Source: Acidobacteriota bacterium (GTDB lineage Bacteria; Acidobacteriota; Thermoanaerobaculia; Multivoradales; Multivoraceae). From it: 64,000 bases of DNA. The translations under genes and the position numbers were made by a program. The stretch is taken from positions 1,274 to 65,273 of the forward strand of contig QQVD01000018.1 of assembly GCA_003388555.1 (NCBI GenBank). The letters are read 5' to 3'. The notes beneath the pieces were generated by a model. The model did not search any database, was not told where the DNA came from, and saw nothing but the letters and a program-made list of their open reading frames with translations. Of the stretch, positions 34,806 through 61,104 are shown piece by piece; position 1 is the stretch's first letter, and each line of letters opens with the position of its first letter.

Positions 34806-34891
34806 GCCGGAGTGGCGGAATGGCAGACGCGGGGGACTCAAAATCCTCTGCCCGCAAGGGCTTGTGGGTTCGACTCCCACCTCCGGTACCA
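34806..34891 (+). tRNA. tRNA-Leu (anticodon CAA), CCA encoded
   Basis: GCCGGAGTGGCGGAATGGCAGACGCGGGGGACTCAAAATCCTCTGCCCGCAAGGGCTTGTGGGTTCGACTCCCACCTCCGGTACCA. Cloverleaf folds with long variable arm, anticodon loop CTCAAAA. Confidence 0.9.
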
Positions 34892-37257: not shown

Positions 37258-38994
37258 TCAGCGACTACGCAGCAACTCGCGGATCGCTTCCAGCGCGGCG
37301 CAGAGGGCGAACCCGGTGGCGCCGGCCTCGCGGCCGTCAGCCTCCTTGGCTCGGTAGGCAGGCCCGGCGATGTCTAGATGCGCCCACTCCCCTGCCCTGA
37401 CGAACTGGGAGAGGAACGCGGCGGCGGTGTTGGCGCTGCCCCAGCGCTCCGACGAGTTGCGAAGCCTGGCGTGCACGCCGCGCATCCGCTCGACGTCCTC
37501 ACTCCACAGCGGCAGGCGCCACAGACGCTCGCCGGTCCGCCGACCGGACTCGATCAACGAATTGGCGAGGCGGTCGCTCGGTGTGTAGACGGCGGCGGCG
37601 TCGTTGCCGAGGGCGACGACTGCGGCTCCGGTGAGGGTCGACATCTCGAGCAGCAGCCGCGGAGTGTGTCGCGACGCCAGGGCGAGAGCGTCGGCCAGGA
37701 TGAGTCGCCCCTCGGCGTCGGTGTTGATCACCTCGACAGTCGTCCCGTCGGCCATCTCGAGGATGTCGCTGGGGCGGTAGGCGGCGGCATCCGGGAGGTT
37801 CTCGGCCAGCGGCAGCAGCACGTCGAGCTCGATCGGCACCTCGAGGTCGGCGAGGAGCAGGCCGAGTGCGAGCACCGTGCAGGCGCCGCACTTGTCGTAC
37901 TTCATCTCCTCCATCGACGCCGCGGGCTTGATCGACAGGCCGCCGCTGTCGAAGGTGACGCCCTTTCCGACCAGGGCGACCCGCGGTGGCGAGCCGTCCT
38001 CGGCGCTCGCCGACCTCGTCGCACCGCCGCTGCTGAGGCGCACGAGCCGGGGGCCGTTGACCGAACCGCCTCCGACCGCGGCGAGCCCGCCGAGGCCTTC
38101 GGCACGAATTCGATCCGGCCCCCACACCTCGACCCGCAGGCCGGCGTCGCGGCCTACCCGTCGGGCCAGCCCGGCGATCCACTCCGGCGTGGCGATGTTG
38201 GCCGGCACGTTGCCGAGCGCCCGCGCGAAGCCGAGCCGAGCGATGACCCGGCGCAGCTCGCGCTCCTCCTGCTCTCCAAACGACCCAGGGAGCAAACAGC
38301 CGCACAGCTTCACCTCGAGCTCCGGAGCTCGTTCTCCCGCCCCTTTGCGTGCGTCGCGGAAGGCATCGAAGCGGAAGAGACCTTCGTCGATGGCGCGCGC
38401 CAGGCGCAGCCGGCTGTCGAACAGAGGCGCTGCGCGACCGGGACCGGCCTCCCCCGCGACGCCGTCGCCGCCGGCCAGTGCCACGAGCGTGACGCTGGCG
38501 GCGCCGACCTCGCGCGCCATCACCAGCGCTCCCCGGACCCAGGCATGGGCCGGGGCCCCGCGATCGGAGACCGGAACGTGCCCTGCGCCGGCGGAGGTCG
38601 ACCCGGCGTCGTCCGGCGCCGGCCGCACCACCTGCAGGTGGAGCCCGTCCGACGACACGCCGCGCAGGCTACGGGTCGAACGAGACCGGCCGGCGCCGGC
38701 GCTGCTGCGCCGACCGCGAGCATCCGCTGGACGCCGTGCGCCTCCACCGTCCCGGTCGAGGGCGTCGAGGTGGACCTCCAACGCCCGCCGCAGTTCGGCC
38801 GGCAGACCGTCGAGTGCATCGCGACCGACGGTCGCCGGCGCGAAGACGCTCACCAGCTCGGAGCGAGCAGCCCGCGGCGGCACCCGCCTCAGGCGGGGCA
38901 TGCGGTCGACGACGAAGGTCGTCGCCAGCTCTTCCGCGAGCAGCGCCGCGCGCTGCCTCCGACCGCCGCGCGGCTCTCGGCGAGCCGGGCTCAT
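37258..38994 (-). CDS. pepA: Leucyl aminopeptidase (M17 family, PepA)
   Basis: C-terminal catalytic domain motifs (VGKGVTFDSGGLSIKP, NTDAEGRLILADAL). N-terminal extent uncertain. Confidence 0.83.
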   Translation of the reverse strand: MSPARREPRGGRRQRAALLAEELATTFVVDRMPRLRRVPPRAARSELVSVFAPATVGRDALDGLPAELRRALEVHLDALDRDGGGARRPADARGRRSSAGAGRSRSTRSLRGVSSDGLHLQVVRPAPDDAGSTSAGAGHVPVSDRGAPAHAWVRGALVMAREVGAASVTLVALAGGDGVAGEAGPGRAAPLFDSRLRLARAIDEGLFRFDAFRDARKGAGERAPELEVKLCGCLLPGSFGEQEERELRRVIARLGFARALGNVPANIATPEWIAGLARRVGRDAGLRVEVWGPDRIRAEGLGGLAAVGGGSVNGPRLVRLSSGGATRSASAEDGSPPRVALVGKGVTFDSGGLSIKPAASMEEMKYDKCGACTVLALGLLLADLEVPIELDVLLPLAENLPDAAAYRPSDILEMADGTTVEVINTDAEGRLILADALALASRHTPRLLLEMSTLTGAAVVALGNDAAAVYTPSDRLANSLIESGRRTGERLWRLPLWSEDVERMRGVHARLRNSSERWGSANTAAAFLSQFVRAGEWAHLDIAGPAYRAKEADGREAGATGFALCAALEAIRELLRSR

Positions 38995-39116: not shown

Positions 39117-41156
39117 ATGGCCGAACAAGACAACCTGCTCGACCACCTCCGAGGTCCGTTCAACTTCCTCGATCCGTCGATCGAGTCGATCCGACTTCAC
39201 CACGCGCGGCTCTCCCAGCTCCTGCCCAGGCCGCGTCCGATCTTCCTGCGCGACGGAGCCGCGACGCCCGTCATGGGCTTCCCGGTCCAGCGCAATCGCA
39301 GCGCGCTACGTCTCGCCGAGGCGCTGCGACTCTACATCGAGTCGGAGGAGCGAGCACAGGTCGCCACCCTGACCGGCGGCGCCGGCTTCGACCTGCGCTC
39401 GCACCAGATGGCCTGGTCCAACTACCGCGAGCAGCTCGAGGAGGTCAGCGAGAACCTGTTCAGCTCGAACTACGGGCGGAGCTTCCCGCAGATCTTCTGG
39501 CTCGACCACTCTCGTGACCTGGTGACGATCCTGCGCGGCACGCCGAGCCGGATCCGCCGTCTCGACCTGCAGATCGGCAAGCGTCGAGGAGAACAGCTGC
39601 GCTACACGGTGCTGTTCAAGTTCCTGCAGCGGGTGATCGCGCTGTGCTACGACCTCGCGGCGAGGATCTCACGCGAAACCGGGCAGACCGAAGAGGAGCT
39701 GTTCCCGCCCATCCTGACCCTGATGCAGGACAACGTGCTGATCCTGACCGAGGACCACGTCGGGCGGGAGCTCGAGGAGCTGGTCGGCTACTTCCGCGGC
39801 TACCTCAAGATCGACGGCCGCAGCCTCCTCTATCGGGTCGCTCTCCTGCGCAGCTGGCACCGCGAGACGCTGGCAGCGGACCCCTTCCTGCGCAGGACGG
39901 CGGAGACCCTGCACCCGGGAAGCGACGAGGCTCCCGACTCGCTCCTCCATCGTCAGGGCTACCTGGACATCCTGTCAGGACATCCCGGTTACGATCCGGC
40001 CGCCCTGCTCGGACCTCCGGAGATCCGGCTCTGGTCGGCCCTGCTCGAGAAGCTCAAGGAGTTCGAGCTACTCAACGCCACCCGCCGGCTGATCGTCGAG
40101 GTCACTGCGTCCGAGCGTGGCTATCTCTGCCCGGGCAGCGCCGCGAAGCGACTCGGGCTGCCGCCGCAGGACGTCGAGCTCTTCCGCGAGACCCGCCCAC
40201 TCGACTTCTCCGCACCGTGGATCATCGATCCCGAGGTCTCGCGCGTCGGCCTGATCTACGACATCACCGAGTTCTCGGCCATCGTCAGCATCGTCCGCCT
40301 CGCCGATCGCGCCTCACAGAACGACTCGTACCGGCAGATCTTCACCTTCCAGCACCGGATCAACCAGATCGCTCGCCTGCTCCGGTTGCGCATCGAGAAG
40401 TACCTCGGCGACGGCGCCTTCTATTCGGGGCGCAATCCGCTGCGCATGCTGATCGCGGCGCTGCGCATGCAGCGGGCCTACGCGGCCGCGGTGGCTGACG
40501 GATTCCCCTTCGACCGCGGCATGCGCCTGGCGCTGAACTTCGGTTCCTACCGACTGCTGCCGCTCGGCGGCAGCAACACAACCGAGGAGGAGCGCTACGA
40601 GGTCTACGGCCACGGACTGGTCGAGCTGTCGCGTCTGGTCAGCGGCAAGAAGGGGCTCGACTTCGAGGAGATCAAGTCGGTGCTGATCGCGCGCGGCTAC
40701 GACGAGCTGGCGGTCAACGACTTCTTCGCGCCGGTGACCGCGGACAGCGCGCGCGCCACGTTCGATCGCGCCAAGGGCGAGTTCTTCGCCGAGCTGAGCC
40801 GTGACGGCGCGCTGGTCAACGAGGGGATCGTCGCCACCGAGCGCTTCCTCGAGGAGCTGCAGCGGAGCCGGCACCTCGGACCGCTGTTCAAGGCGCAAAG
40901 GGACGATCGCAGCTATGTCGTCGTCGCCCAGCCCGCCGGTCCGGGCGAACGTGAGCTCATCGCGGTGAGGCGGCTCGGCCTCGCCCGTCTCAAGGGCCTC
41001 GACAAGCTCTCGGTGTACGAGGTGCTCGACGCCACCGGTTGGGAGCTCAAGCGCGAGGACCAGCTGCACCGCGTGCCGCTGGTGCAGGCGATCAACGAGT
41101 CGTTCACCGCCAGCCTCGCTCGCGCCGGCCGGCCGACGCCGATCCGTCCGCTCTAG
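39117..41156 (+). CDS. Hypothetical 679-aa protein with a central region resembling a class III adenylate/guanylate cyclase catalytic domain (divergent)
   Basis: G/C-dominated third codon positions across the ORF, as in the other coding regions here. Residues about 365-510 carry CHD-like motifs in the correct order: [11 protein letters not shown] (cf VTVLFADIVGFT), [10 protein letters not shown] (cf KTIGDAYM), [10 protein letters not shown] (cf RIGIHTG) and [16 protein letters not shown] (cf YDVWGDTVNLASRME, with Asn replaced by Glu). Confidence 0.75.
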
Positions 41157-41182
41157 CAGTCCCGGAGGGCCATCCGGGACTG
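41157..41182 (+). terminator. GC-rich hairpin directly after the stop codon of gene 39117..41156
   Basis: CAGTCCCGG-AGGGCCAT-CCGGGACTG, 9-bp stem. No U-tract, which is common in high-GC genomes. Confidence 0.4.
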
Positions 41183-41254
41183 CTGGACCGGGCCGAGTCG
41201 GGCGCAGCGCCGCTCGGCCCGTGACCTGGCCCGCTATGATCGCCGCGCCGTTGC

Positions 41255-41293
41255 GGAGGCGTCACGCGGAGGCGTCACGCGGAGGCGTCGCGC
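41255..41293 (+). repeat. Three tandem 13-bp direct repeats GGAGGCGTCACGC (third copy GGAGGCGTCGCGC) about 90 bp upstream of purC
   Basis: Direct reading. Unit length not a multiple of 3 and intergenic, so non-coding. Confidence 0.85.
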
Positions 41294-41383
41294 GAAGGCC
41301 GTCGTTTTCGCGCTTCTGGCAGGTCGGCCGCCAACCCGACAGAAGCGACAACCACAGACCTCACAGCCAGGGAGAGGCTTCCC

Positions 41384-42304
41384 TTGAGCCAGATGAACGA
41401 GTCCGCGCCGGGTCAGTCGGCGCTCGTACGCACCCAGCTCGACGACGTCGGCGCTGTCAAACGCGGCAAGGTGCGCGACCTCTACGATCTCGGCGACCGT
41501 CTGCTGGTCGTCGCCACCGACCGCCTGTCGGCCTACGACCACGTGCTCAGCCCCGGCATCCCGGACAAAGGCAAGGTGCTCAACCAGCTGACCAACTTCT
41601 GGTTCTCGAGCACCAGGGAGATCGTGCCCAACCACCTGCTGGCAACGCGTGTCGAGGAGTTCCCGGAGGCGCTGCAGCCCTACGCCGAGCAGCTCGCTGG
41701 ACGCTCGGTGATCGCGGCCAAGGCCGAGGTCGTCCCCTTCGAGTGCGTCGCTCGCGGCTACCTTGCCGGCAGCGCCTTCCGCGAGTACAGCCGGACCGGT
41801 TCGGCCTGCGGCTACTCACTGCCGGAAGGCCTGGTGCGCGCCAGCCGCCTCGACGAGCCGCTGTTCACGCCGGCGACCAAGGCTGAGAGCGGCCACGACG
41901 AGAACATCAGCTACGCGGAGCTGGTCGACCGCGCCGGCAGCGAGCTCGCCGAGCGCCTGCGTGACGTCACCCTGGAGCTCTACCAGCACGGCCGAGACTT
42001 GGCCGCCGAGCGCGGCCTGATCCTCGCCGACACCAAGTTCGAGTTCGGCTGGATCGACGGCGAGCTCACCCTCATCGACGAGGTGCTGACGCCCGACTCC
42101 TCGCGCTACTGGGAGGTCGACGCGTGGAGCCCCGGGACCGAGCCGGTGTCTTTCGACAAGCAGTTCGTGCGCAACTGGCTCGACGAGAGCGGCTGGGATC
42201 ACGACAGCCCGCCACCGGACCTGCCGGGGCACGTCGTCGCCGGCACGCGGGACCGCTACTTGACGGCGTTCCGACGCATCACCGGGAGCGATCCGGAGCT
42301 GTGA
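41384..42304 (+). CDS. purC: Phosphoribosylaminoimidazole-succinocarboxamide synthase (SAICAR synthetase)
   Basis: 306 aa, SAICAR synthetase family (…[26 protein letters not shown]…LADTKFEFG…). Confidence 0.95.
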
Positions 42305-48299: not shown

Positions 48300-48385
48300 G
48301 CCGGAGTGGCGGAACGGTAGACGCAGAGGACTTAAAATCCTCCGCCTTCATCGGCATGTGGGTTCGAATCCCACCTCCGGCACCA
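48300..48385 (+). tRNA. tRNA-Leu (anticodon TAA), CCA encoded
   Basis: GCCGGAGTGGCGGAACGGTAGACGCAGAGGACTTAAAATCCTCCGCC…GGGTTCGAATCCCACCTCCGGCACCA. Anticodon stem GAGGA/TCCTC, loop CTTAAAA. Confidence 0.9.
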
Positions 48386-48449
48386 CTAAGGGAAGACGCG
48401 GCCGGACCGCCAACGGCCACCACCAGGCTGTGCCCGCACGCGGGCAACG

Positions 48450-48524
48450 TGGAGGCGACGGTCGGAATCGAACCGACGAATAAGGGCTTTGCAGGCCCCT
48501 GCCTTACCACTTGGCTACGTCGCC
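48450..48524 (-). tRNA. tRNA-Cys (anticodon GCA), CCA encoded
   Basis: Reverse complement GGCGACGTAGCCAAGTGGTAAGGCAGGGGCCTGCAAAGCCCTTATTCGTCGGTTCGATTCCGACCGTCGCCTCCA, 75 nt cloverleaf. Confidence 0.88.
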
Positions 48525-48598
48525 GGGCGTTGCGCGCCGCGCCATCGGCGCCGCGAGCTTCCACCTCGTGGATCGTGCGCACGATCCGGGAGGCGAGC

Positions 48599-48673
48599 TG
48601 GAGCGGGAAACGGGATTCGAACCCGCGACCCCAACCTTGGCAAGGTTGTGCTCTACCACTGAGCTATTCCCGC
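48599..48673 (-). tRNA. tRNA-Gly (anticodon GCC), CCA encoded
   Basis: Reverse complement GCGGGAATAGCTCAGTGGTAGAGCACAACCTTGCCAAGGTTGGGGTCGCGGGTTCGAATCCCGTTTCCCGCTCCA. Confidence 0.9.
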
Positions 48674-52104: not shown

Positions 52105-53049
52105 TTATTGCATGGTCGAGCCGGCGCGCGACCGCAGCTTGCCGCACATCTCCCGCAACTCGGCATCGTTGCCGAGGCGACGCAGCCCGGAGACCAGGGC
52201 ACGTGGGTCCGGGTTGCCCACCAGGCAACGCTCGAGACCCTCCCGATCCAGCACCAGCACGCTGCCGTTGCCGGTCGGCCGCAGGCTCACCGCCCAGGGT
52301 TGGCGTTCGAGCAGGCTCGACTCTCCCAGCAGATCGCCGATCGTGAAGGTGCGCAGGCTCGTGTCGCGGCCACCGGTCGGCGCCGGCGCCAGGGCCTCGA
52401 TCTCGCCGAAGGCGATCAGGAAGGCCCGTTCGTCGCTGGACTCGGCGCGTACGAGGGTCTCGCCGACACCGAATCGACGCAGCTTCATGTTCGAGAGCAC
52501 GCGCACGATCTGCTCGCCAGGGAGCTCCCGCACGACCGGCGAGCTGCTCAACCGGTCCCAGATCTGCTCCAGCTCGATCGCCGCCGTCGCGACCGCGCCG
52601 CTGCCGCTCCGACTGGCGCTGCTGAGCGCGGCGACCGCCTGGCGGCGCACCTGATCCAGCTTGCGCTTCTCCTCCAACAGCAGGAGCCGCTGCTTGATGC
52701 TCTCTTCGAGCGGCGCGATGCGCTGGCCGCGGGTGAGCGCAGCATGGGCGCGATCGAGGAAGCCGTCGCGCATCATCTGATCGGCCGCCCCGATGTACTC
52801 GACGATCGCCTCGTCCCGCTGTTCGAGCCGCTCGAGGACGCCGGCGAGCTTGAGCCGCGCGTGGTGGTCCTGCGGTGCCGTCTTGAGCCGTTTGCGGAGG
52901 CGCTCCTCGGCCTCGGCGAAGCGCCCGAGGACGATCAGGTCATCGGTGGTCGGACCGGTATCGCGGTCGCGGGCGCCGGGCCGACGCTTGCCCTTGCCGC
53001 CACCCTTGTCGGCGGGCTTCTTGGAACGGCCCTGGAAGAACGACTTCAC
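52105..53049 (-). CDS. Cyclic-nucleotide-binding domain protein (N-terminal helical/TPR-like region, C-terminal cNMP-binding domain, no HTH)
   Basis: cNMP-binding signature (…FGEIEAL…RTFTIGDLLGESSLLERQPWAVSLRPTGNGSVLVLDREGLERCL). Start set at GTG 53049 (GAGG 6 nt upstream). GTG 53082 is an alternative. Confidence 0.68.
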   Translation of the reverse strand: MKSFFQGRSKKPADKGGGKGKRRPGARDRDTGPTTDDLIVLGRFAEAEERLRKRLKTAPQDHHARLKLAGVLERLEQRDEAIVEYIGAADQMMRDGFLDRAHAALTRGQRIAPLEESIKQRLLLLEEKRKLDQVRRQAVAALSSASRSGSGAVATAAIELEQIWDRLSSSPVVRELPGEQIVRVLSNMKLRRFGVGETLVRAESSDERAFLIAFGEIEALAPAPTGGRDTSLRTFTIGDLLGESSLLERQPWAVSLRPTGNGSVLVLDREGLERCLVGNPDPRALVSGLRRLGNDAELREMCGKLRSRAGSTMQ

Positions 53050-53586
53050 CCGGCACCTCGACCCCGTGAATCGATGAGACACCCCTGGGGAACCCGGCGA
53101 CGAGTCGCCACACGGTGCACCGCGTAGCCTGGGCCAAGGGGCGATCCTCCACTGTACGCGCCACTGCTGACGGCGGTCAAGGTCCGCCTCCCGGTGTCGT
53201 CCTCTCGTGAGGACGGCATGAGACCCGCAGAGAACGGTCGCCGGACGTCGCTCCTCACGGTGCCTGGAGTGCTCGGATCGCGGATCCCCGGGATGGCTGC
53301 TGGGTCCCTTCCCAGCCGCCAGATCGCCGCCTGGCGCCGCCCGCGCCGGCGGTGCCGAGCCGAGGTCGGTCGGGGTCGCGAAGGAGCTCGGCTTAGATCG
53401 CGCTACGTCCCGTTCCGCGGGGGTTTGCCTGGTGTGGGGCCATCGGCGGGCGAGCCGACGAGGTGGCTGCGATGCTCGCCCGGCACAATGCGTGCGCGCT
53501 CCCGCCGGCGGCCACCCCTGGATCCAGCGGCCGCCTGGGCGCCCGGCATGTGGGCCTTGCCGTAGGCTCGACCGGACTTTCGGTCC

Positions 53587-53602
53587 TGGAACACATGTTG
53601 CA
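53587..53602 (+). promoter_or_regulatory. Candidate sigma-54 (-24/-12) promoter TGGAAC-N5-TTGCA
   Basis: cTGGAACacatgTTGCAcc with correct GG/GC spacing, 74 nt upstream of ATG 53676. rpoN is encoded in this window. Confidence 0.45.
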
Positions 53603-53675
53603 CCGGATGTCCGGCGTGCGGCGGATCGCGGCGAACTGCGACGAGCCGGCACCAGAGACCGAGGAGGCTACCGCC

Positions 53676-56450
53676 ATGACCCTTGACCGCAACGATCACT
53701 CCATCGACCGCGCCGAGCGTCCGTCACGCGAGCGCTGGCGCCGACCCTCCCTCCCGGCCGTCGCCGCGGCTCCGCCGCAGCGCCGCGTCGCGGGGATCAC
53801 GCTGCTCGGCGGGCTCCTAGCGACGCTCGCGAGCGTGCTGCTGGCGGCCGGCGCACGGGCCCAGGACTACGCCGACACGGCGGACGAGCGACGCTACAGC
53901 TCGGTGCGCTTCCTCGAAGGCCCGGCTTCGCTGCAGACCGAGGAGAGCGCCGAGCGCATCGACCTCGAGCCCAACTACCCCATCGTCACCGGCGACCGGC
54001 TGTGGGTGCCGCCCGGCTCCCGCGTCCTGGTCGCCCTCGCCGACGGCAGCCTGCTGGCTGTCGGAGGCGGCACCGAGGTGGTCTTCGACCAGCTCGCGCT
54101 GTCGCTCGACAGCGAAGAGTCGACCTCGCGCCTGCGTCTGCTGCAGGGGCGTATCGACCTCAACGTCGACGAGTTCTTCCAGGCGCCCGAGCTGCCCATC
54201 GTCGACACGGCGAATGCCCGTGTCTTCGTGCAGTCCGAATACGCCCGCCTGGCCATCGGCGCCAACCACTCGGACTGGACCGAGGTCACCACCCGTGACG
54301 GCCTGGCCGAGGTCCTGACCCCCAACGGCTCGTCGCTGGTGCGAGCCGACGAGGAGCTGACCGTGCGCGGCATCCACGACACTGCGGTCGATCTCGCCCA
54401 GGCGGCTCCGCTGCAGGATCTCGAGCTGTGGGCCGGCGACTCGGCGGTGCGGTTGGCTCGTGGCACTTTCGACGAGCTCGAGGCGCCGCTTCCCGAGACC
54501 GCCCAGCTCGACGATCACGGTGACTGGGTCGTCGTCGAAGGCAGCCGCGCCTGGCGCCCGCGCGTCGCGACGGACTGGCGGCCGTACTCCTCCGGGCGCT
54601 GGGTCCATACCCCCACGGGGCTCTACTGGGCCACCTACGATCCGTGGTCGCCGGTGGTCTACCACTACGGCGGCTGGGACCTGCACCCGCGTTGGGGCTG
54701 GGTCTGGTACCCGGGCTACCGCTACGCGCCGGCACACGTCGCCTGGTATTTCGGGCCCGACTACTACGGTTGGATCCCGACCACCTATTACCGACGCCAC
54801 TACGGCTTCCATCTCACCGGCTTCGGATTCCGGTTCGGCATCTGGGGCCGCGCCGGCGGCTACTGGGACCCGTTCTACGACTGGACGTTCTGCCCGACCG
54901 GGTACTTCGGCGCGCGCCGCGGCTACCACCACTACCGCTCGGGTCGCTACTACCGTGACCGCGGCCACGGCCGCCTCGGTGACGGCTACGTCACCACCGA
55001 CACCACCTACGTGACCAAGGCCCACCTGCGCGATCCCGACCGCATCTACCGCGATCTCGACCGCGACGGCGGACGACGTGACCTGGTCGACGTCAACCCT
55101 CTGCTGGCCAGGGGCAAGGAGGTCCCGGAGTCGGTCCGCAAGGCGGTGCTGGTGCGCGGCGACAGTCAGACGGTGACACCGAAGGTGCGCCGCGGTGTGC
55201 TGGCCTCGGGCGAGGTCCCGAGAGCGAGCGAGCGTGGTGTCAAGGTGGCCACAGGCACCCGCTCCAGCCTGCGCTCCACGAGCACGGTGAACGGCAAGAG
55301 CACCGGCAGCCTGCGGTCGGTGCCGCGCAGCGACGAACGGCGCGAGCCGGCAAAGGCGATCGTCGACGGCGTCCGCCAGCGCAGCGACTCCGGCGCGACC
55401 GCGAAGGTGCCCGCCACCTCCTGGCGAGGACCGGACACCGACGGCCGGGCAGCGACGAGCGCCCGCGGTCGAGTCGACGGCCGCGGCGACGACGGCAAGG
55501 GCCGCACCACGGTCCGCGGCGTCGAACGGGGTGCCACACCGAGCACCGTGAGCAGTCCGCGGGGCAGCGTGCGCGACAGCGGCAACCGTGAGAAGACGAC
55601 GCCGCCGTCCCGCTCGGCGCCGACGATGCGCTCCACCGCCCCGCCCAGGACGGCGCAGCCGCGCACGGTTCCGTCGCGCCCGAGCACGTCGCAGCCGAAG
55701 GCGACGCCGTCGCGACCCAGCTCGGCACAGCCCAAGGCGGCGCCGTCGGCTCCTCCTCGCAGTGCCTCGCCGCGGTCGAGCTCGCCGCCGCCGCGGCAGG
55801 CGTCGCCGCCGCCCTCGAGCCCACGAGCCACGCCGAAGAGCTCCAAGCCGCCGGCCGCTCGTGAGGTCAGCGGCGTGCGCGGCGCCAGTCGGGAGCAGGT
55901 GAGCCAGCGCGCCAAGACCAGGGCGCTGCCGCGCTCCAGCCGGTCGCCGGGCTCCTCCCGCACCGTGAGTCGCTCGCGCGCCTCACGACCGGTAGCCAGC
56001 CCGCGCCGCCCGGCGCCCAGCTCCCGCTCCAGCGTGCGCGACGAGTCTTCCCGCACCAGGCGTCCGTCGGCACGGTCGTCGGCGGCGAGCCCGTCACGGA
56101 GACCGGCGAGCAGCTCCGCGAGTCAGGTGCGCTCCAGCGGCCGGTCGGGCTCGGTCTCTGCGTCGCGACCGGCGCCGTCGACGCGTGGCCGCAGCAGCGT
56201 GCGCTCGGCGCCGAGTCGTTCCTCGACCGTGCGTTCGGCGCCCCGGAACTCGGCGCCGCGACCGACGGTGAAGAGCTCGCCGTCTCGGCGCTCGACCTCG
56301 GCGCGCCCCTCGAGCCGCCCGTCGTCGCGTCCTTCGGCCAAGAGCAGCTCGCCACCGCGCCGCTCTGCGGCCTCGAGCGGCAGGTCCAGCTCGCGGCCGA
56401 AGCCGAGCGCCAGGTCGGCACGATCGAAGCGGCCGCCGGGCGGCGCCTGA
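53676..56450 (+). CDS. Large hypothetical protein: N-terminal signal/TM segment, FecR-like domain, Trp/Tyr/Gly-rich block, and a roughly 450-aa Arg/Ser/Pro-rich low-complexity C-terminal tail
   Basis: ATG 53676 with GAGGAGG 8 nt upstream. G/C-dominated third codon positions along the whole 2.8 kb ORF, including the RS-rich tail. N-terminal part resembles FecR (DRLWVPPGSRVLVALADGSLLAVGGGTEVVF). Residues about 310-440 are extremely rich in W/Y/G/H/R. Tail is built from SR/SP/RP-type low-complexity sequence (…SRSRASRPVASPRRPAPSSRSS…). Confidence 0.7.
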   Translation: MTLDRNDHSIDRAERPSRERWRRPSLPAVAAAPPQRRVAGITLLGGLLATLASVLLAAGARAQDYADTADERRYSSVRFLEGPASLQTEESAERIDLEPNYPIVTGDRLWVPPGSRVLVALADGSLLAVGGGTEVVFDQLALSLDSEESTSRLRLLQGRIDLNVDEFFQAPELPIVDTANARVFVQSEYARLAIGANHSDWTEVTTRDGLAEVLTPNGSSLVRADEELTVRGIHDTAVDLAQAAPLQDLELWAGDSAVRLARGTFDELEAPLPETAQLDDHGDWVVVEGSRAWRPRVATDWRPYSSGRWVHTPTGLYWATYDPWSPVVYHYGGWDLHPRWGWVWYPGYRYAPAHVAWYFGPDYYGWIPTTYYRRHYGFHLTGFGFRFGIWGRAGGYWDPFYDWTFCPTGYFGARRGYHHYRSGRYYRDRGHGRLGDGYVTTDTTYVTKAHLRDPDRIYRDLDRDGGRRDLVDVNPLLARGKEVPESVRKAVLVRGDSQTVTPKVRRGVLASGEVPRASERGVKVATGTRSSLRSTSTVNGKSTGSLRSVPRSDERREPAKAIVDGVRQRSDSGATAKVPATSWRGPDTDGRAATSARGRVDGRGDDGKGRTTVRGVERGATPSTVSSPRGSVRDSGNREKTTPPSRSAPTMRSTAPPRTAQPRTVPSRPSTSQPKATPSRPSSAQPKAAPSAPPRSASPRSSSPPPRQASPPPSSPRATPKSSKPPAAREVSGVRGASREQVSQRAKTRALPRSSRSPGSSRTVSRSRASRPVASPRRPAPSSRSSVRDESSRTRRPSARSSAASPSRRPASSSASQVRSSGRSGSVSASRPAPSTRGRSSVRSAPSRSSTVRSAPRNSAPRPTVKSSPSRRSTSARPSSRPSSRPSAKSSSPPRRSAASSGRSSSRPKPSARSARSKRPPGGA

Positions 56451-61028: not shown

Positions 61029-61104
61029 TGGAGCGGGCAACGGGACTCGAACCCGCGACATCAAGCTTGGGAAGCTTGCACTCTACCAACTGAGTTATGC
61101 CCGC
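61029..61104 (-). tRNA. tRNA-Gly (anticodon CCC), CCA encoded
   Basis: Reverse complement GCGGGCATAACTCAGTTGGTAGAGTGCAAGCTTCCCAAGCTTGATGTCGCGGGTTCGAGTCCCGTTGCCCGCTCCA. Confidence 0.9.

Follow-up and report, generated by a model that had tools for sequence, protein, structure and literature searches.

Across life, cAMP and cGMP come mainly from class III nucleotidyl cyclases, which genome surveys tally with PF00211-type profiles. Their catalytic domains (CHDs; PF00211) have been solved for several bacterial enzymes, among them Cya2 of Synechocystis (2W01), CyaB of P. aeruginosa (3R5G), CyaC of Spirulina (1WC1) and Ma1120 of M. avium (4WP8/5D0E). GGDEF diguanylate cyclases such as PleD (1W25) have a related palm-type fold and also carry out two-metal nucleotide chemistry. 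DUF2652 cyclase-like proteins occur in Actinobacteria, Bacteroidetes and Proteobacteria, and the mycobacterial ones conserve a Lys-Glu pair, the metal-binding Asp and the Arg, while the transition-state Asn is replaced by Ile (Ramakrishnan et al. 2016, PMC4886424). The mycobacterial Rv1900c is an active class III cyclase with His in place of this Asn, indicating that the Asn is dispensable (summarised in PMC4886424).

The gene described here lies at 39117..41156 on the forward strand of the window, the 64,000-nucleotide stretch of DNA that was analysed; the parts of the gene given below, a hairpin at its end and purC are on the same strand. As originally predicted, it is a single, complete ATG-initiated ORF, listed with 679 codons and a TAG stop codon, and its product has 679 aa (~77 kDa). 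The ATG start at 39117 is well supported because homologues start at the equivalent residue. The GC3 of the gene was 0.89, the same as that of the adjoining purC, and by this measure the gene appears native to its genome. The highest 19-residue hydropathy window reached 1.44 and no transmembrane segment was found with this window; the protein is predicted to be soluble and cytosolic.

Sequence profiles for known domains did not recognise the protein. The hmmscan against PF00211 suggested with the original prediction gave no match to it at E<=10 (Pfam, single sequence), nor to any of 50 family members scanned singly at E<=1, and the domain is called cryptic for this reason. In HMMER searches in both directions, the profiles of the family and of the PF00211 CHDs did not detect each other, and identity to class III CHDs was only 9-15%. 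No match was obtained with NCBIfam or, at E<=10, with the DUF2652 model, and a small CHD HMM run with filters off did not detect the ORF. Searches of PDB sequences with the protein, a full-length profile and a domain-only profile returned no cyclase and no usable match. When 5.8 billion proteins were searched with the domain-only profile for a bridge to PF00211-annotated proteins, the 120 matches listed were solely family members. Neither a canonical cyclase nor a family paralogue was found elsewhere in the window.

The fold was recognised from structure. A template-free AlphaFold2 model of the protein (pLDDT 90.5, pTM 0.85) was compared with the PDB using Foldseek. There were 139 matches at E<=1e-3, and the best 50 were all class III adenylyl/guanylyl cyclase domains (E about 1e-6, probability 1.00), with TM(target) values of 0.65-0.80 for single-domain cyclase targets. 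Structures among the best matches were Cya2 (2w01), Ma1120 (5d0e/4wp8), CyaB (3r5g), CyaC (1wc1), the mammalian 1cjk and RhGC (5oyh). DSSP assigned to the model the order E373-383, H386-394, H398-421, E425-429, E433-438, H441-460, E469-482, E494-497 and H499-509; this order and the Foldseek matches are those of a class III CHD, and the fold and strand/helix order are shared with the bacterial domains listed above. In hhalign, the family core aligned with three solved CHDs (Cya2, CyaB and CyaC) with probabilities of 55-74% and P of 2.7e-5 to 1.2e-4, while the controls, GGDEF domains (P 0.13) and the N-terminal domain (P 0.26), were both negative. The predicted structure and the best hhalign result (74%, P 2.7e-5) thus bear out the cryptic class III cyclase-like domain that had been proposed, and the model supports the C-terminal half of the protein (residues about 370-645) as a highly divergent class III nucleotidyl-cyclase-type catalytic domain. 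The domain is larger than the roughly 150 residues first suggested, spanning about 275 residues (370-645) with its insertion included; the C-terminal region, previously left unassigned, completes this fold.

The cyclase-homology core (residues 370-513; 40224..40655) was delimited by the AlphaFold2 fold, the hhalign register and residue invariance. Its elements follow the order beta1-alpha-alpha-beta2-beta3-alpha-beta4-beta5-alpha4, and it carries D382, K428, D432, R470, N474, E495, V502, E503, R506 and G510-K511. A two-helix, family-specific insertion (residues 514-556; 40656..40784) follows, as seen from the model, the Foldseek alignment and its conserved length. The helices, H516-525 and H530-549, were modelled with lower pLDDT (55-89). 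Foldseek alignments covered 265-290 columns against targets of 160-200 residues, the insertion was 42-49 residues long in the ten distant-subgroup members checked, and L523, G527, Y528, F536 and P539 within it are conserved. The C-terminal part of the fold (residues 557-645; 40785..41051) was assigned by hhalign with the insertion excised, by the model and by conservation. It comprises an L566-x-N568-E-G570-I-V-A-T strand, an extra beta-hairpin and a K626-G627 ... Y-E635 terminal strand, the canonical counterpart of which is v-K-G-k ... y-x-l. After excision of the insertion the domain aligned end to end with CHDs; residues 557-645 alone gave P 0.24, which is not significant. Unlike the class III CHDs compared, this protein has an insertion of ~44 residues after alpha4 and the extra hairpin.

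Active-site residues were placed by hhalign profile-profile alignment against Cya2, CyaB and CyaC. The four motif strings quoted in the original prediction were all present in the order given, at residues 377-387, 427-436, 469-478 and 494-509. D382 (codon GAC, 40260..40262), the first metal-binding Asp by register and invariance, lies in the beta1 motif Y-D-I-T-D/E-F-S, where the canonical form is F-x-D-I-x-G-F-T. The substrate-specifying Lys and the second metal-binding Asp, assigned on the same grounds, are found in K428-Y-L-G-D432 (40398..40412), which occupies the beta2-beta3 hairpin and corresponds to canonical K-x-x-G-D. D382 and D432 align with both canonical metal-binding Asp residues of the three solved enzymes and are invariant (158/158). 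The positions of the base-specifying pair hold K428 (158/158) and E495 (154/158); Glu at the second position is non-canonical, class III CHDs having Asp, Thr, Cys or Gly there, and the substrate is not deducible from the pair. E495, G498, V502, E503 and R506 lie on or near helix alpha4 (40599..40634), where the G...R stretch aligned without gaps. R506, also invariant, aligns with the transition-state Arg of V-N-x-A-x-R on this helix. The transition-state Asn, four residues before the Arg, is absent: its position is V502, occupied by Val in 130 and Ile in 26 of the 158 members, and the invariant E503 stands at Asn+1. The replacement of this Asn by Glu noted originally was therefore off by one residue. 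The F-S/T of the phosphate-binding turn was aligned with that of the solved CHDs as well. Metal-binding Asp, K-x-x-G-D Lys, alpha4 Arg, F-S/T turn and terminal K-G are thus in common register with class III CHDs and, as in the homodimeric bacterial enzymes, one chain holds all catalytic residues. The family differs from these domains in having Val/Ile for Asn with an adjoining invariant Glu.

Like the 679-aa protein, the DUF2652 proteins are cryptic class III-like proteins, recognised by remote homology only and biochemically uncharacterised, and the mycobacterial ones share with it the Lys-Glu pair, the metal-binding Asp, the Arg and a hydrophobic replacement of the Asn. However, DUF2652 proteins are single-domain proteins of about 250 aa with their own Pfam model and belong to other phyla, whereas the protein described here has two domains and the insertion. 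Rv1900c is recognised by standard profiles, has another domain architecture and is not known to have an invariant Glu at Asn+1.

The protein had been described as an orphan, which was wrong. A word-indexed search found 154 homologues at E<=1e-3 and an exhaustive search 191 representatives at 50% identity; full-length homologues form at least 190 sequence clusters, and the family occurs in 240 species genomes. Nearly all of the best 80 homologues came from MAGs of Thermoanaerobaculia, Holophagae and other Acidobacteriota. No Pfam domain was present among the homologues listed and no earlier description of this Acidobacteriota cyclase-fold family was found in literature searches; one source (JGI) labels a family fragment 'class 3 adenylate cyclase'. 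The family is an unannotated, lineage-restricted one of Thermoanaerobaculia and related uncultured Acidobacteriota. Alternative architectures returned by the exhaustive search (P0203, P0266, P0245 and others) were not true fusions but gene calls that proved chimeric or fragmentary.

Conservation was evaluated in a MAFFT alignment of 158 full-length members with identity down to about 28%. Y381, D382, E427, K428, G431, D432, G433, R470, G498, E503, R506, G510 and K511 were invariant, and N474 (157/158) and E495 (154/158) nearly so. Among the 55 positions conserved in at least 95% of members, 45 fell within the catalytic half, so that purifying selection acts on just the active-site residues. 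The invariance of both Asp, the Lys and the Arg agrees with the conservation expected of true motif residues in orthologues, and since motif residues are invariant or near-invariant at such divergence, the four motifs are not chance matches.

The N-terminal domain (residues 1-365; 39117..40211) was defined from the model, Foldseek and conservation, and is fused to the cyclase domain in none of the listed class III enzymes. It was modelled with pLDDT 94.4 and pTM 0.91 and consists largely of long helices, plus two small beta elements. Foldseek gave no significant match in the PDB (best E 0.67, probability <=0.09) and none in BFVD, a set of viral predicted structures. Only 10 of its positions were at least 95% conserved, so it is evolving faster than the catalytic half, and no conserved His/Cys/acidic cluster was seen in the family alignment. 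Since it has neither such a cluster nor a relevant structural match, hits to Hemerythrin (3/50 members, best E 0.071) and Fe_dep_repr_C (2/50 members, best E 0.0023) were discarded as noise. The domain may serve in regulation, sensing or dimerisation.

From the fold, residue register, conservation, distribution and gene neighbourhood established here, we infer how the protein may dimerise, catalyse, choose its substrate, form its product and be regulated. By analogy with the solved enzymes, it is probably an active, dimeric, two-metal class III-type nucleotidyl cyclase. Two chains would form a head-to-tail homodimer. One chain would bind, through D382 and D432, two Mg2+/Mn2+ ions that activate the 3'-OH on the ribose of a nucleoside triphosphate, and the base, probably a purine, would be read by K428 and E495 of the other chain. 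R506 would stabilise the pentavalent alpha-phosphate and K626, judged from its canonical counterparts, may bind the gamma-phosphate. The products would be a 3',5'-cyclic nucleotide and pyrophosphate, with cAMP as a first guess because of the Lys (K428). With Val/Ile in place of the ribose-orienting Asn, the invariant E503, the next residue along this helix, may assume or modify the role of the Asn, and the helical N-terminal domain (1-365) may control activity or stabilise the dimer.

The gene neighbourhood bears on a different, unlikely though serious possibility, that the same palm fold and two-metal centre serve another chemistry functionally tied to purC. The enzyme might, for instance, produce a cyclic or linear signal nucleotide of a non-canonical kind, transfer nucleotidyl groups or act on an intermediate of the purine pathway. 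The same fold superfamily holds non-cyclase enzymes, e.g. archaeal GTP cyclohydrolase III and Thg1. The purC gene (SAICAR synthetase; 41384..42304; PF01259, E 1.3e-71) followed the gene directly, in the same orientation, in 74/77 informative genomes, and the two genes overlapped by 4 bp in locus L001 and in L090, a distant-subgroup locus in which all other neighbours differ. The replacement of Asn by Val, the Glu fixed at Asn+1, the unusual Lys-Glu pair and the conserved insertion also favour a different chemistry. On the other hand, every top structural neighbour was a bona fide adenylyl or guanylyl cyclase, and the class III-specific Lys of K-x-x-G-D, the alpha4 Arg and the terminal K-G are all retained. 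Furthermore, purC did not adjoin the gene in three of the four informative distant-subgroup loci, and a RadA, DnaB or DnaA/Hda-like gene recurred nearby in some loci of both subgroups, suggesting inherited gene order and not functional coupling. No riboswitch, shared regulatory RNA or other RNA element was found between the gene and purC.

In the window, the housekeeping neighbours are pepA, purC, alr and dnaB. A 15-bp GC-rich hairpin without a U-tract overlaps the stop codon (41152..41187; dG -31 kcal/mol, z -3.9). It may form the 3' end of a transcript or act in attenuation between the gene and purC; neither a sigma-70-like promoter nor a canonical terminator was found at the locus. The cNMP-binding-domain protein pointed out earlier (52105..53049) was confirmed by an above-cutoff match to PF00027 (E 4.8e-8), its gene lying 11 kb away from the cyclase-fold gene. 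PADLOC gave no match for the protein or two distant members, and together with the housekeeping neighbours this led us to reject a defence system (Pycsar-like, CBASS or another in PADLOC).

A more specific proposal, which we regard as improbable, is a purine-linked enzyme or sensor outside cAMP/cGMP signalling. The N-terminal domain would sense a metabolite of the purine pathway such as SAICAR, AICAR/ZMP or IMP, and the cyclase domain would make a non-canonical nucleotide, with the Glu replacing the canonical Asn function and the product coordinating de novo purine synthesis with growth. Such a role would account for the age of the pairing with purC and for its frequent translational coupling.

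The original prediction also raised a pseudo-cyclase, which is quite improbable. This would be an inactive regulatory protein that has kept the fold but lost turnover, and that binds nucleotides or acts in a purely structural way. In its favour, the family lacks the canonical transition-state Asn and has diverged beyond the reach of any cyclase HMM, and the insertion might block the canonical dimer. However, degenerate sites normally drift, whereas here the metal-binding Asp, Lys, Arg, K-G and several Gly residues are invariant in 158 sequences of 28-100% identity, with conservation concentrated in active-site elements. Some active cyclases, Rv1900c among them, also do without the Asn (PMC4886424).

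A GGDEF-type diguanylate cyclase or another palm-domain family is very improbable. 'YDITDFS' and 'KYLGDGAF' superficially resemble the beta1 and hairpin motifs 'DIDHFK' and 'RxGGDEF', a likeness of motifs alone; the hairpin reads L-G-D-G-A-F where GGDEF domains have GG[DE]EF, and these domains are without the alpha4 Arg and K-x-x-G-D Lys present in the family. With 3ign, PleD 1w25 and a consensus, hhalign gave 0.4% (P 0.13) as against 74% (P 2.7e-5) with class III CHDs, no GGDEF structure was among the best 50 Foldseek matches, and Pfam GGDEF matched neither the protein nor the 50 members. Chance motif resemblance in an unrelated fold, suggested by the lack of sequence-database support for a cyclase, is hardly credible given the structure prediction and search, hhalign with its negative controls and the invariant motif residues.

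Should the protein prove to be just an adenylyl cyclase, the benefit lies mainly in improved annotation of some 240 species genomes. Surveys based on PF00211 entirely miss a conserved cyclase-fold protein carried by a whole bacterial class. The carriers, Thermoanaerobaculia and their relatives, are abundant uncultured Acidobacteriota of soil and sediment, and they hold the gene in a housekeeping neighbourhood. With the Asn lost, the adjoining Glu fixed and a Lys-Glu pair, the family offers a natural test of which catalytic residues are truly indispensable, and the 365-residue helical domain without a Foldseek match among solved structures is another feature to follow up. The old and unusual linkage to purC may hint that nucleotide signalling and purine biosynthesis are connected.

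The 679-aa family protein is encoded by a single ATG-initiated ORF (39117..41156, + strand), and the residue equivalent to its start also begins the homologues. Since the GC3 of the gene was 0.89, the same as that of the neighbouring purC, and the hydropathy peak over 19-residue windows (1.44, in a beta strand) was below membrane-helix level, the protein is native and soluble, with a mass near 77 kDa. All four motif strings from which a cryptic class III nucleotidyl cyclase domain had been proposed were present, at residues 377-387, 427-436, 469-478 and 494-509.

The protein had also been called an orphan, which was wrong, as 154 homologues (E<=1e-3) were retrieved when 5.8 billion proteins were searched through a word index. 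Among the 120 of these listed, nearly all were 640-725 aa long with >90% query coverage and 41-80% identity, the exceptions being a few truncated gene calls; none had a precomputed Pfam domain, and the sole name given to any of them was 'hypothetical protein', in Thermoanaerobaculia/Acidobacteriota MAGs. An exhaustive phmmer search of 1.84 billion cluster representatives gave 191 matches, including a distant subgroup of 766-872 aa with 28-34% identity. Relatives were found in 240 genomes when 185,579 species were scanned with one genome per species. The best 80 of these 240 were all MAGs, nearly all labelled Thermoanaerobaculia, Holophagae/Holophagales, 'Multivoradales' or Acidobacteriota, with one 'Deltaproteobacteria' and three unclassified genomes as outliers. 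No published description of the family was found in the literature searched, and no family model covers it. A 503-aa fragment of the family, P0138, carries the JGI/IMG label 'class 3 adenylate cyclase' while the other named members are 'hypothetical protein'; thus at least one annotation pipeline has occasionally made the same cyclase assignment.

The domain proved cryptic at the sequence level, as the original prediction had described it. The hmmscan against PF00211 that it proposed was negative, Pfam at E<=10 giving nothing usable for the family protein. Nothing usable was obtained from NCBIfam, from PADLOC, from Pfam searches with 50 family members one at a time, or from PDB sequences searched with the protein, a 50-sequence full-length profile and a 22-sequence domain-only profile. 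The domain-only profile matched 218 proteins in the 5.8-billion-protein set, and all 120 listed were family members without Pfam domains. A small HMM of the class III catalytic domain (CHD) did not detect the ORF with all filters off.

Structure prediction and structural search supported the cyclase-like domain. The AlphaFold2 model (50-sequence family alignment, no templates) had a mean pLDDT of 90.5 and a pTM of 0.85, and its predicted order over residues 373-509, namely beta1, two helices, a beta2-beta3 hairpin, a helix, beta4, beta5 and a helix, is the topology characteristic of class III. A Foldseek search of the PDB returned 139 matches at E<=1e-3, of which the best 50 were all class III adenylyl/guanylyl cyclase catalytic domains, including Cya2, Ma1120, CyaB, Rv1625c, RhGC, CyaC, mammalian VC1/IIC2, sGC and GC-A (probability 1.00, E about 1e-6 to 2.5e-5, TM normalised to the single-domain targets 0.65-0.80). 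Because the targets have 160-200 residues and the alignments covered 265-290 columns, the fold contains large insertions and reaches well beyond the central 150 residues to which it had been assigned.

The residue register was obtained with hhalign, using an alignment of 158 full-length family members against the PDB sequences of Cya2 (2W01), CyaB (3R5G) and CyaC (1WC0). The core (370-513) aligned with these class III CHDs at 74% probability (P 2.7e-5), residues 360-645 at 63% (P 7e-5), and residues 370-645 with the insertion excised at 55% (P 1.2e-4), whereas the N-terminal control (1-360) gave 0.2% (P 0.26). D382 corresponded to the first metal Asp (Y-D-I-T-D/E-F-S vs canonical F-x-D-I-x-G-F-T), and in E-K-Y-L-G-D-G (vs D-K/E-F-x-G-D) K428 took the base-specifying Lys/Glu position and D432 that of the second metal Asp. 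R470 and N474 fell in the R-x-G-I-H/N-x-G strand, E495 at the second base-specifying position three residues ahead of the conserved G498, and R506 at the transition-state Arg. With the insertion excised the alignment reached the last strand of the domain and placed K626-G627 on the terminal K-G strand; the K626 equivalence depends on this end-to-end alignment together with the fold, since segment 552-645 alone was not significant against class III CHDs (P 0.24). Between G498 and R506 the residues were spaced as in the canonical G-x-x-V-N-x-A-x-R, without indel, so the transition-state Asn is replaced by V502 and not, as had been proposed, by Glu, E503 being at Asn+1. Since positions i+3 and i+4 before R506 share one helix face, E503 could still reach the Asn region.

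Conservation across the 158 members agreed with the expectation that the two Asp, the Lys and the Arg would be kept in orthologues, D382, D432, K428 and R506 being invariant. Also invariant were Y381, E427, G431, G433, Y455, G468, R470, G498, E503, G510, K511, L566, N568, G621, K626 and G627; N474 was kept in 157 and E495 in 154, and residue 502 was Val in 130 and Ile in 26.

The N-domain (1-365), modelled alone, consisted of long helices and two small beta elements (pLDDT 94.4, pTM 0.91). Foldseek found nothing significant for it in BFVD or in the PDB (best E 0.67, probability <=0.09, TM <=0.22). It accompanied the cyclase-like domain in 157/157 aligned full-length database members; apparent alternative architectures among partial matches traced to gene calls that were fragmentary or chimeric. 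For this domain, the weakest part of our model, a role in regulation, sensing or dimerisation may be suggested. The insertion (514-556) was modelled as two helices with a lower pLDDT of 55-89, and was 42-49 residues long in ten distant-subgroup members, which differed chiefly in carrying a C-terminal tail of about 100-200 aa for which no Pfam domain is recorded. In P0143, P0145, P0146, P0151 and P0153 this tail comprised an acidic or Pro-rich linker and a short conserved-looking segment.

The gene is followed by purC (41384..42304, + strand), and a divergent pepA (37258..38994, - strand, Peptidase_M17) lies upstream; an OEP/TolC-type gene, alanine racemase and dnaB are also neighbours. The listed pepA ORF is 578 aa, compared with about 490 aa for its homologues in other loci; the catalytic-domain match is limited to residues 255-562 and no Peptidase_M17_N match was found. 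Translation therefore probably starts further downstream than listed, the alternative being a divergent N-domain. Of 80 genome loci, 77 had enough downstream sequence to judge, and in 74 of them purC followed immediately on the same strand (median gap 67 nt between tblastn matches; exceptions L025, L052 and L057). An overlap of 4 bp between the called genes occurs in locus L001 and again in distant-subgroup locus L090, where all other neighbours differ; purC was missing at distant loci L086, L088 and L089. In both subgroups, some loci also had RadA, DnaB or a small DnaA/Hda-like AAA+ gene in the vicinity. The association of the family gene with purC is thus old and often operon-like, not obligatory, and may partly be inherited gene order. 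At L088 (1..9388) the 795-aa P0153 lies on the same strand 26 nt past the last EutN gene of a bacterial-microcompartment cluster (two BMC genes, three EutN genes, aldehyde dehydrogenase, DeoC and RpiB). At L086 (6014..10814) a DinG/XPD-type helicase (DEAD_2, Helicase_C_2) comes 20 nt after P0143, and a small DnaA/IstB-like AAA+ gene lies divergently upstream of it; a similar gene follows purC in L090.

Neither an Rfam element nor a consensus promoter or terminator was found in the 228-nt spacer before purC. A perfect 15-bp GC-rich hairpin (41152..41187; dG -31 kcal/mol, z -3.9 against shuffles) overlaps the TAG stop; lacking a U-tract, it is missed by the terminator scan, and it may form a factor-independent 3'-end or act in attenuation, a kind of structure typical of genomes with high GC. 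Further along the spacer, at 41253..41299, lie 3.6 tandem copies of a 13-nt unit, GCGGAGGCGTCAC (94% matches).

The separate cNMP-binding-domain protein that had been reported was confirmed in a 515-aa ORF (52105..53652, - strand), with PF00027 above the gathering cutoff at residues 391-476 (E 4.8e-8, 33.3 bits vs 27.5). Judged by its sequence, it is a potential cyclic-nucleotide receptor 11 kb from the family gene; no canonical cyclase is encoded within the 64-kb window. The ORF has a weak TPR-like stretch, and its listed start may be over-extended because the N-terminal third is Arg/Pro-rich. The C-terminal half of a 995-aa ORF (53463..56450, + strand) is an extreme Ser/Pro/Arg/Ala low-complexity tract, and this ORF may either encode a genuine disordered or cell-surface protein or be an artefact of open frames at high GC. 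Rfam placed five tRNA genes in the window, three clustered on mixed strands (48300..48673) and two at 34806..34888 and 61032..61104.

Fold, register, conservation and gene context are demonstrated; on balance, we infer that the family protein is an active class III-type nucleotidyl cyclase. It would be a two-metal enzyme acting as a presumed homodimer, in which D382 and D432 would bind the metals, K428 and E495 would read the base, and R506 and K626 would handle the alpha and gamma phosphates, respectively. The function of Asn would be either dispensable, for which Rv1900c is the model, or assumed by E503. ATP is a first guess for the substrate because of the Lys at 428; product and regulation are likewise inferred. 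Mycobacterial DUF2652 cyclase-like proteins have a Lys-Glu pair, a hydrophobic residue in place of Asn and a retained Arg (PMC4886424), exactly the active-site pattern of the family protein, but they are a separate family that it does not match. The same fold might instead perform different chemistry, possibly tied to purine metabolism, which we consider the foremost alternative and a rather unlikely one. An inactive pseudo-cyclase is less probable still: 45 of the 55 positions conserved at >=95% lay within residues 366-679, the N-domain contributing only P37, P39, G54, L129, L208, L222, L313, R323, P361 and F364, so that selection centres on the putative active site, a pattern that speaks against a decayed pseudo-enzyme. 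A GGDEF-type enzyme or a chance resemblance is very improbable, as the core aligned with GGDEF sequences (3IGN, PleD and one consensus) at 0.4% (P 0.13) compared with 74% (P 2.7e-5) for class III CHDs.

The family adds a new and strongly divergent variant to a well-known type of enzyme and is confined to a bacterial lineage that has been little studied. What sets it apart are the structurally unmatched N-domain, the conserved insertion and the unusual substitution in the active site. Interest in it would rise substantially if the product were non-canonical or the purC linkage functional.
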